64,000 nucleotides of DNA from Candidatus Bathyarchaeota archaeon (GTDB lineage: Archaea; Thermoproteota; Bathyarchaeia; Bathyarchaeales; Bathycorpusculaceae). Of this stretch, positions 55,117 to 57,175 are shown piece after piece. The stretch covers positions 416,001 through 480,000 of the forward strand of contig CAWHVC010000005.1 of the NCBI GenBank assembly GCA_963832745.1, given 5' to 3'. The notes beneath the pieces are model-generated. The model saw nothing but the letters and a program-made list of their open reading frames with translations. It did no database searches and had not been told where the DNA came from. Position 1 is the stretch's first letter. Every line of letters starts with the position of its first letter. The position numbers were made by a program, and so were the translations under genes.

Positions 55117-55788
55117 TTAAACCTCGTATTGTGTTGGGTCTGTTATTCCTGCTTCCTTGAAGGCTTTTTTGCGGTTCACACAGGATTCGCATCTTCCGCA
55201 GTGTTTTTCACCGTCAAGGTAGCATGACCAAGTCAACTCTAAGGGTACACCAAATTCTGCGCCAGCTTGAAGTACCTCAGATTTTTTCTTGCCGCTAAAG
55301 GGTGCTAAAATTGTAATTTCTTGGTCAGTTCCTAGTTGAGCGGCTTTTTCAAAGGCTTGATAGAATTCACGTCGACAGTCTGGATAGAAAGGTTCGTCTG
55401 AACCATGTGCGCCATAAAAAATTTTGTTTGCGCCAACGGTGACTGCATAGGCTACGGCTGCAGATAGGAAAATGGCGTTACGGAAGGGTACGATTATTGG
55501 TGCAGTGAATTCGCTGGTTAAGGGGATGTCTCGGTTTATAAGTGCGGCTGTTCCGCTAAAGATGTCTTTTAATGCTGAAAGGTCGATGATTTTTGTGTTG
55601 GTGCCGAGTTTTTCTGCGATTTTTTGGGCTGCTTGAGTTTCTTTGACGGCGATTTGTCCGTACTTGAAGGTGATTGGGTAGATTTGGTAACCTTGAGTTT
55701 TTGCCCAGTAAGCAACCACGGCGGAGTCTGGTCCACCACTAAGAACAACTATGCATTTTTTAGTTTCGTTCATACAGTTTTGCCTCAC
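55117..55788 (-). CDS. queC: 7-cyano-7-deazaguanine (preQ0) synthase
   Basis: LSGGPDS, YGQ, VPFRN, YPDCR, TWSCY...CGRCESC..R. Confidence 0.95.
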   Translation of the reverse strand: MRQNCMNETKKCIVVLSGGPDSAVVAYWAKTQGYQIYPITFKYGQIAVKETQAAQKIAEKLGTNTKIIDLSALKDIFSGTAALINRDIPLTSEFTAPIIVPFRNAIFLSAAVAYAVTVGANKIFYGAHGSDEPFYPDCRREFYQAFEKAAQLGTDQEITILAPFSGKKKSEVLQAGAEFGVPLELTWSCYLDGEKHCGRCESCVNRKKAFKEAGITDPTQYEV

Positions 55789-56293
55789 TATTTTTTGTTT
55801 CTAACCCTATCCAATGTTGGATACCTGCTTTCTTTAGCAGTTTAAACAGTGGCCAACCGATTAGCACGCTTGCAACAATGTTTCCAAGGGCAATGTACAC
55901 TATAGTTTCAAGAAGTGGGTAACCGTACAGGAAAGACAGCATCCACCCCACGGTTGTACCAAGAACGGCTGAGTAAGCGATGCAGGTTCCGATAACTGTG
56001 TAGTCATTGTTGGTTTTTTTGTAAATGTAGTATACTGCAAACGCCATCACAAAAGAGGGTATGGTGTTTAGCAAATCGATAAGGCCAGCTGGTGAAAAAA
56101 GGTTGGCGATAAAGACTCCCAAGGTGTGCCCCATGACGCCTGCAATTCCGAGCAGTGGCACTGCGGCAACAAGTGAGTCTGCTACTCGGACTTGAAGGGG
56201 TCCATAGGATAATCCTGGAAGAAAAAGTACTAACGCAGCATAAAGTGCGGCGTATACCGATATTAAAGCTAATGTTTTGGTTTTGTTTTGCAA
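55760..56293 (-). CDS. queT: QueT-family 7-deazapurine transporter
   Basis: AALYAAL, LSYGPLQVRVAD, GHTLG..IAN; overlaps queC. Confidence 0.85.
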   Translation of the reverse strand: MQNKTKTLALISVYAALYAALVLFLPGLSYGPLQVRVADSLVAAVPLLGIAGVMGHTLGVFIANLFSPAGLIDLLNTIPSFVMAFAVYYIYKKTNNDYTVIGTCIAYSAVLGTTVGWMLSFLYGYPLLETIVYIALGNIVASVLIGWPLFKLLKKAGIQHWIGLETKNSEAKLYERN

Positions 56294-56362
56294 TCGAAAT
56301 CCTCCCTACCCCGGGTTTTATACTTGGCGGAACGGGTGGGAGATTACTCACCCGCCAATTGC
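56294..56362 (-). promoter_or_regulatory. Structured 5' leader of queT-queC (candidate riboswitch, SD-sequestering pseudoknot)
   Basis: Stem TTGGCGG/CCGCCAA; loop AATCTCCCACCC complementary to GGGTAGGGAGGATT, which contains the SD; TATA TTTTTATG ~25 nt upstream. Confidence 0.6.
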
Positions 56363-56582
56363 AGACAGAAATCGTTGGGTTTCATAAAAAGGTTTGCCGG
56401 GGAAGTCGAGATTGGAATATTTCGGTTTCGGAAATACCACTTATAACTAAATTCGGTCATATTAAGAATCAAGAAGCGGCTTAGATAGAAAGGGGCTAAG
56501 CGGCAAAAGAGAAAGGGGAAGAAAAAGCTCGAGGGAGAGGGGAAGGCTTCCAAGAGGGAAGGAGAAAAGGAGAAGGCAAAAC

Positions 56583-56681
56583 ATGAAATGCCCATCGTGT
56601 GACTCAAAAATCAGTGTAGACATGAAAACCAAAGAATGCAGTTGCCACCAATGTGGCTGGCATAAAACTTTTGGCAAGTAA
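56583..56681 (+). CDS. 32-aa one-domain zinc-finger microprotein
   Basis: MKCPSCDSKISVDMKTKECSCHQCGWHKTFGK; preceded by GGAG-rich sequence. Confidence 0.65.
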   Translation: MKCPSCDSKISVDMKTKECSCHQCGWHKTFGK

Positions 56682-56722
56682 GTCTACCCTTTTGGATTTT
56701 TTAATTAAATTTTTAAGTATCT

Positions 56723-57175
56723 TTGCGTTCACTGCTTTTGGTGAATATTTTGCAGTTTGAAGATTGCGTAAAATTTGCAAACGAGAACCCCTCAAGTTAT
56801 ATAGCTACTACGGAAGGCGACCAGCCAAGAGTACGCGGCATGCTAATGTGGTATGCAGACAAAACAGGCTTCTACTATAACACTGGAGCAGAAAAAGACC
56901 TCTACAAGCAACTCCAAGTTAACCCAAAAGTTGAGCTCTGCTTTTTTGACCCTAAAAGCCAAAATCTGCGTATGATGCGGGTTACTGGAAAAGTAGAGTT
57001 AGTAAGCGACCTTGCTGTTAAAAAGCGGCTTATCGAGGAGAGACCGTTTCTTAAACAGATGGGTTTAACCGCTGAAAGCCCCAGCCTAATTGTGTTACAT
57101 GTACCTAAAGGTGAAGCTTACTTCTGGACCATGGACACAAACATGCAGCCAAAAAATAAGATAACGTTTGGCTAA
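56723..57175 (+). CDS. Pyridoxamine 5'-phosphate oxidase-like FMN-binding protein (start probably ~56742-56749)
   Basis: IATTEGDQPRVR, FYYNTG..K.LYKQL..NPKVELCF, RVTGKV. Confidence 0.85.
   Translation: MRSLLLVNILQFEDCVKFANENPSSYIATTEGDQPRVRGMLMWYADKTGFYYNTGAEKDLYKQLQVNPKVELCFFDPKSQNLRMMRVTGKVELVSDLAVKKRLIEERPFLKQMGLTAESPSLIVLHVPKGEAYFWTMDTNMQPKNKITFG

Follow-up and report, generated by a model that had tools for sequence, protein, structure and literature searches.

The preQ1 riboswitches fall into three classes. The aptamer of class I (preQ1-I) is very small, at about 34 nucleotides (nt), with a second helix of few pairs and a cytidine that immediately precedes the 3′ half of its first helix (P1). 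According to a 2024 review of the preQ1 family (PMC11625349), aptamers of class II are almost double class I in size and form an HLout pseudoknot with four pairing regions (P1–P4), limited to Bacillota, and class III consists of about 100 nt and five pairing regions, with an expression platform far from the pocket; archaea are mentioned nowhere in it. A 2017 survey lists as archaeal riboswitches only those for thiamin pyrophosphate, fluoride, flavin mononucleotide, Mg2+-I and guanidine-II (PMC5473149). Here we analyze a 5′ leader of about 69 nt that precedes queT and queC on the minus strand of a 64,000-nt stretch of DNA, which we call the window (Candidatus Bathyarchaeota archaeon, order Bathyarchaeales; assembly GCA_963832745.1, contig CAWHVC010000005.1, positions 416,001–480,000). 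In our proposal, this leader serves as both aptamer and expression platform and represents an undescribed class of translational OFF riboswitch that is specific to archaea and has preQ0 as its most likely ligand; we assign this reading a probability of roughly 0.68. An earlier inspection of the letters by themselves, referred to below as the sequence-only reading, had suggested a candidate new class outside preQ1-I, -II and -III at this place, and the suggestion is supported by the missing Rfam match, by helices that covary and by a tie to 7-deazaguanine genes.

The evidence comes mainly from related leaders. QueT is present in 34 of 41 related genomes, and the 220 nt upstream of queT were cut from 30 orthologous loci. 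Twenty-eight of these 30 leaders have one motif in common, with the pattern GGCGGGUGAGUG..CUCC(C)ACCCGUUCCGCC..AUAAA(A/C)CCCGG..GUAGG(G)AGG, and the two exceptions (loci L020 and L021) carry another leader, described below. Since the motif is kept in loci of other families in which QueT is just 28–38% identical, the RNA is better conserved than the protein. In this first alignment of 28 leaders, 95.3% of cells were paired in P1 and the pseudoknot helix, compared to 38–60% for slid partners. A covariance model of P1 only (R1) was built on the 28 leaders, and 96 distinct leaders, the most different of 138 (difflib similarity ratio ≤0.93), were aligned to it; because R1 contains P1 only, the resulting alignment is not fitted to the pseudoknot. 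Of 1550 cells in both helices, 94.4% pair, compared to 38.6–56.8% for slid partners, and double-sided changes occur in 11 of the 19 pairs, amounting to 119 cells. Conservation and covariation in orthologous leaders, on which the sequence-only reading had made its proposal depend, were thus found on both counts, with the motif shared by 28 of 30 leaders and 119 compensatory cells among 96.

At the level of single pairs, P1 (columns 8–12 with 40–44) pairs in 99.8% of cells, with pair 12:40 occurring as G-C in 85 and as C-G in 11 of the 96 leaders, and pair 8:44 as GC (75), AU (8), GU (8), CG (2) and UA (2). In the pseudoknot helix, pair 29:76 is UA in 61 leaders and CG in 25, pair 30:75 is CG in 64 and UA in 23, and pair 27:78 takes six pair types. 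The strands of this helix vary in length together (CCUCCC/GGGAGG versus CCUCC/GGAGG), and the entire helix that covers the Shine-Dalgarno (SD) sequence is swapped in loci L199 and L200, to UUCCGAC/GUCGGAA, and in an Asgard copy, to CCUCGCA/UGCGAGG. Eight unpaired positions, namely G13, U14, U39, A58, A59, A60, C62 and C63, are identical in all 96 leaders, and U38 (95 of 96), G17 (94), A56 (93), G15 (92) and A16 (89) are nearly so. All of these invariant and near-invariant positions flank the point at which P1 and the pseudoknot helix meet; the helix bulges (columns 67–69 and 72) and the lengths of L1 (6–14 nt) and L3 (9–19 nt) vary. Invariant unpaired bases beside a helix that varies freely may well constitute a ligand pocket. 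As judged from the aligned sequences, the motif is more than chance, a conclusion that comes from comparison and not from the single sequence.

In the window copy, the leader and the genes behind it are laid out as follows.
56383–56390, minus strand: TATA-like box TTTTTATG, spanning −34 to −27 relative to P1, as read from the sequence
Between the TATA-like box and P1, minus strand: spacer of 20 nt, then GCAAUU, as read from the sequence
56360–56363, minus strand: predicted transcription start, 4–7 nt 5′ of P1, placed by the conserved TATA spacing
56352–56356, minus strand: P1 5′ strand GGCGG, pairing with CCGCC
56344–56351, minus strand: L1 GUGAGUAA, with G13 and U14 invariant and G15, A16 and G17 nearly invariant
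56333–56343, minus strand: pseudoknot 5′ strand (anti-SD) UCUCCCACCCG in the loop of P1, columns 27–37, pairing with columns 64–66, 70–71 and 73–78
56331–56332, minus strand: L2, UU at the junction of P1 and the pseudoknot (U38 in 95 and U39 in 96 of 96 leaders)
56326–56330, minus strand: P1 3′ strand CCGCC, pairing with GGCGG
56314–56325, minus strand: L3, A-rich linker AAGUAUAAAACC, with invariant AAA at 56317–56319 and CC at 56314–56315
56301–56313, minus strand: pseudoknot 3′ strand CGGGGUAGGGAGG, pairing as CGGG-GU-A-GGGAGG and including the SD sequence
56301–56305, minus strand: SD sequence GGAGG, 7 nt (AUUUCGA) 5′ of the TTG start
56291–56293, minus strand: TTG (UUG) start codon of queT, as read from the sequence
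55760–56293, minus strand: queT, 177 amino acids (aa), TTG start, Pfam QueT E = 8.6e-23
55117–55788, minus strand: queC, 223 aa, Pfam QueC E = 4.6e-63, NCBIfam TIGR00364 196.7 bits, above the cut-off

Measured from P1 through the SD sequence, the element is thus about 56 nt long. The layout given in the sequence-only reading holds: Pfam assigns both downstream genes as it had named them (QueT E = 8.6e-23, QueC E = 4.6e-63), and the H-type pseudoknot with an A-rich linker that sequesters the SD sequence is backed by covariation in P1 and in the pseudoknot helix alike. For P1 itself, which had been drawn with 7 base pairs (bp), the 5-bp core GGCGG/CCGCC stands, and the UU/AA extension to 7 bp is possible in the window copy. 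There is a 29-nt overlap of queC with the end of queT, and the two genes are probably co-transcribed. The 5′ end of the leader, GCAAUUG (56356–56362), can also pair with CGAUUGC (56290–56296) over the UUG start on the minus strand; this pairing forms part of the minimum free energy (MFE) fold of the window copy, and AAUUG repeats occur in its closest relatives as well.

When 137 leaders were aligned on the first G of P1, a T-rich box at −34 to −28 and an A-rich stretch at −39 to −36 stood out, and little else. An archaeal TATA box is centered about 26 nt before the transcription start, and together with the conserved TATA spacing this rule places the start at 56360–56363. A start near 56362, as predicted earlier, therefore fits the TATA box conserved 28–34 nt before P1 in the 137 leaders.

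The genes behind the motif are nearly uniform. The 138 distinct leaders are followed by 136 callable open reading frames (ORFs), of which 126 encode QueT by phmmer. Two others (L152 and L280) encode radical S-adenosylmethionine proteins, whose best NCBIfam matches are QueE models, below their cut-offs, and two (L241 and L254) encode a membrane protein of 229–234 aa without a Pfam match; the remaining ORFs run off the end of a contig or do not begin with a standard start codon. Where the first ORF is complete (123 loci), a second ORF follows on the same strand in 84, and in 54 of these 84 it is QueC. Of 12 Asgard copies, 11 lie in front of QueT, and the remaining one is truncated. The motif is tied almost exclusively to 7-deazaguanine genes. 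As to the membrane-protein ORFs, which lie at L254:4165–4866 and L241:863–1549 on Bathyarchaeota contigs, the L254 protein, the one of the two that was compared, has no NCBIfam match and no BLASTP similarity to QueT (E = 0.92), and both proteins are candidates for an unrecognized 7-deazaguanine transporter. At three further loci (L233, L133 and L186), QueT-like frames behind the motif have no ATG, GTG or TTG at the expected place, which could reflect unusual start codons or assembly errors.

The motif is present once in most genomes that carry it. R1 found a single match in the 3.02-megabase genome to which the window belongs (75.4 bits, E = 1.1e-21). Across the order, matches were obtained in 118 of 151 genomes, in 85 of 105 high-quality genomes and in 54 of 63 genera, nearly always as one copy. 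In the phylum of the window, 30 of 151 genomes had matches, including families outside the class, as did 25 of 151 genomes of the Asgard phylum Promethearchaeota and none of 151 Thermoplasmatota genomes. Two loose DNA pattern scans over 185,579 species genomes, whose counts are lower bounds, yielded after rescoring at least 78 full-length matches (16 + 34 + 28) at ≥49 bits. Taxon labels were read for 62 of these 78, all of them archaeal (Bathyarchaeota or Bathyarchaeia, Nitrososphaerota or Nitrososphaeria, Methanomethylicota including Candidatus Methanomethylicus mesodigestus, Promethearchaeota, or simply 'archaeon'), and the other 16 (L152 and 15 of L269–L306) lie outside this tally. Among the matches listed, the leader nearest to the subgroup of the window belongs to Candidatus Bathycorpusculum grumuli. 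The scans also returned candidates that we discarded: a pattern match in Thermoplasmata (L228) had no covariance-model match, and G+C-rich bacterial matches, which scored ≤22.9 bits and nearly all of which were partial, covering the blocks of the pattern only, were set aside as chance.

A second type of leader precedes queT at the two exceptional loci. In L020 and L021 (1400–1500 in each), the sequence GGUAGUUUCCGUAU.UAACCUACCUUAAAAAACC(C)GG is followed by a divergent form of QueT (Pfam E = 1e-28 and 8e-24). Leaders of this type were also seen at L340, L341 and L342, and their carriers include three genomes (G141, G094 and G126) of the four in family f1 that have no copy of the main motif. By eye, this leader forms a small H-type pseudoknot with P1 GGUAG/CUACC, P2 CCG/CGG and an A-rich tail, which we take to resemble preQ1-I; no Rfam match was obtained for it. 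The complementary distribution of the two leader types fits two interchangeable sensors for one pathway, and the second leader may be another archaeal riboswitch candidate.

The gene content of the genome bears on the ligand. In the genome of the window, which is 99% complete, we found TgtA, the tRNA-guanine(15) transglycosylase (457 bits, above the cut-off), together with QueT and one true QueC; profile searches returned no QueD (PF01242) and no QueF (PF14489), and also no QueE, as the best QueE-like ORF is NrdG, the anaerobic ribonucleotide reductase activase adjoining NrdD. The TgtA match (G000:C5:301057–302028, locus L307) contains one in-frame TAG, and the longest standard ORF there, of 469 aa, starts only at profile position 74, as might result from a split gene, an error in sequencing or read-through of the codon. 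QueD was found in just 11 of the order's 151 genomes and in 8 of its 105 high-quality ones. With QueD, QueE and QueF not found and QueD rare in the order, these archaea seem dependent on imported 7-deazaguanine for archaeosine, and the gene content suggests that such auxotrophy is widespread in the order. Salvage of preQ0 by archaea is stated in one paper (PMC5699537) and suggested in another (PMC5372724). Because queC is kept beside queT and probably co-regulated with it, the gene arrangement further suggests that the imported compound is at least partly a QueC substrate, such as 7-carboxy-7-deazaguanine (CDG). As a feedback signal, preQ0 would be the most logical choice, as it alone both serves TgtA and lies downstream of all of QueE, QueT and QueC.

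The data above show the conservation, both helices, the association with genes, the taxonomic spread and the lack of an Rfam match; the mechanism, with its ligand, direction of control, transcription start and tertiary contacts, is one that we infer. The leader folds into a classical H-type pseudoknot in which the 5′ strand of P1 is followed by L1, the anti-SD strand, UU, the 3′ strand of P1, the A-rich L3 and the SD strand. P1 comprises 5–6 bp and the second helix, formed between the loop of P1 and the SD region, 11–14 bp; the A-rich linker would lie along P1, and a ring of invariant unpaired nucleotides (G13, U14, U38, U39, AAA and CC) sits around the helix junction. A 7-deazaguanine would bind at this junction and lock the pseudoknot, most likely preQ0, with which the QueC reaction ends and on which TgtA acts. 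With GGAGG then out of reach of the ribosome, queT would be translated less, and so, probably, would queC, whose overlap with queT may allow coupling.

Several observations weigh against this proposal. Folding of the leader by itself gave an MFE of −24.2 kcal/mol (z = −1.06), with 29 of 200 shuffles folding equally well, and a 161-nt stretch gave an MFE z-score of +0.30, although the program does not handle pseudoknots, which makes such single-sequence folding uninformative. Nearest-neighbor energies in the window are −8.1 kcal/mol for P1, −11.9 kcal/mol for the pseudoknot helix as a lone hairpin and −11.3 kcal/mol for an alternative hairpin, and the pseudoknot helix, being long and G+C-rich, might therefore form without ligand. 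The alternative hairpin, GGCGGGUG/CACCCGUU, is the sole evident competitor of the pseudoknot and shows no covariation. It had been described earlier as a fold that would free the SD sequence; in the 96 leaders it is indeed formable in 96.2% of cells, but compensatory changes in its support number 0, and the change of P1 from G-C to C-G, a covariation seen in 11 of the 96, disrupts it. That it represents the ligand-free state is possible. The covariation score of the 96 leaders was reached by none of 500 shuffles, a statistic that overstates independence since the genomes are kin; this kinship does not affect the slid controls or the range of pair types. The alignments all stem from one model built on 28 leaders, which very divergent copies would escape. 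Finally, with no Rfam preQ1 model matching, the pocket is not tied to a known mode of 7-deazaguanine recognition.

We consider it unlikely that the same riboswitch-type RNA binds another ligand, be it the 7-carboxy- or 7-amido-7-deazaguanine that would be imported as a QueC substrate, preQ1, archaeosine base or guanine. The pairing of queT with queC in 54 of 84 loci, along with QueD and QueE that were not found, points to import of a QueC substrate rather than of preQ0, yet an OFF switch triggered by that substrate would shut off the very enzyme that consumes it. For preQ1, production is not expected in a genome in which no QueF was found. The junction UU in place of the cytidine of preQ1-I and the lack of a match to any known preQ1 model agree with a different ligand, whereas the motif in front of a QueE-like gene at two loci is in keeping with feedback from a product that lies downstream of QueE.

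Recognition of the leader by a protein or another RNA, such as an autoregulator or a tRNA that stabilizes or opens the pseudoknot, appears more improbable still. The invariant unpaired nucleotides might just as well make up a surface that a protein contacts, the stability of the helix suffices for it to form without help, and few riboswitches are known in archaea (PMC5473149). No conserved regulator gene lies beside the motif, however, and the second gene is QueC or unrelated; moreover, the same core recurs both in the window's own phylum and in an Asgard one, and both architecture and gene set parallel those of the small-molecule preQ1 riboswitches (PMC11625349). We regard as very improbable a constitutively structured leader that senses no metabolite and adjusts translation or the stability of the mRNA, or serves as a thermosensor. 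Sequestering the SD sequence would by itself lower the translation of a membrane protein, and the alternative fold with a free SD sequence has no covariation support; but a simple SD-masking helix has no need of eight unpaired positions that are identical in 96 of 96 leaders while paired positions vary freely, and restriction to 7-deazaguanine genes would be left unexplained. We therefore retain the preQ0-responsive OFF switch as the preferred explanation.

A broader proposal, on which our opinion is evenly divided, follows from the distribution and gene content. The motif would represent a fourth structural class of 7-deazaguanine riboswitch and the first riboswitch class confined to archaea, sensing preQ0, the archaeosine precursor, and not preQ1; it would be old enough for Bathyarchaeia, further lineages of the phylum and Asgard archaea to have it in common, and would govern salvage where de novo synthesis has mostly been lost, implying a community trade in 7-deazaguanines, possibly in CDG. 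If this is true, the leader would provide a new aptamer fold for a 7-deazaguanine, conserved, present in single copy, hiding the SD sequence, linked to genes for archaeosine precursors and spread over two archaeal phyla, as well as direct evidence of working translational riboswitches in archaea and a ready marker for those uncultured Bathyarchaeia and Asgard archaea that salvage preQ0 or CDG. At about 70 nt, the RNA is short enough for immediate work in vitro.

Searches against known families set the element apart. Rfam 15 gave no match at E ≤ 10 in window positions 55900–56800 (901 nt) and no riboswitch match in 17 orthologous loci; within 56280–56375 (96 nt), three unrelated weak matches lie on the opposite strand, far below thresholds, and at E ≤ 10 none of the preQ1 families is matched, in agreement with the earlier remark that the sequence departs from the preQ1-I, -II and -III consensus. 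In the main texts of the openly accessible papers searched, we found no description of the motif, and none of them contains the terms 'preQ0 riboswitch', 'archaeal riboswitch' or 'preQ1-IV'; the supplementary lists of riboswitch surveys may bear on this novelty. One general feature of a riboswitch is present, namely a conserved, structured 5′ leader with covariation that is confined to the genes of one pathway.

Among the described classes, preQ1-I (RF00522) is the nearest likeness, though its model does not match. The two have in common an H-type pseudoknot, a first helix P1 about 5 bp long with an A-rich 3′ linker behind it, a second helix that involves the ribosome-binding region, a place before 7-deazaguanine transport or synthesis genes and an expected translational OFF logic. 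The short P1, the A-rich tail and the second helix to the loop that characterize preQ1-I are all found here, with both helices supported and the linker containing the invariant AAA. The archaeal element differs from preQ1-I in being about twice as long (about 56 nt), in a second helix of 11–14 bp instead of a few, in a long and conserved L1 (GUGAG), in a junction of UU instead of the cytidine and, as far as was searched, in being found in archaea only.

With preQ1-II (COG4708/queT motif, RF01054), as reviewed (PMC11625349), the element shares the position before queT and an SD sequence that lies within a pseudoknot helix adjoining the presumed pocket and is fully occluded. These traits are evident in the archaeal leaders, in which GGAGG forms part of the pseudoknot 3′ strand and 126 of 136 downstream ORFs are QueT. 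In contrast to the four pairing regions of the HLout fold, the archaeal element has two conserved helices and no embedded hairpin, its variable stretches of 6–14 and 9–19 nt holding no conserved hairpin; its archaeal spread and the lack of a model match also separate it from preQ1-II. preQ1-III (RF02680), by the same review, likewise precedes queT and has SD/anti-SD pairing in its design, but the element has neither its size nor its five pairing regions and does not match its model. The archaeal element would work like a preQ1 riboswitch and yet belongs to none of the three classes, being set apart from classes II and III also by their descriptions.

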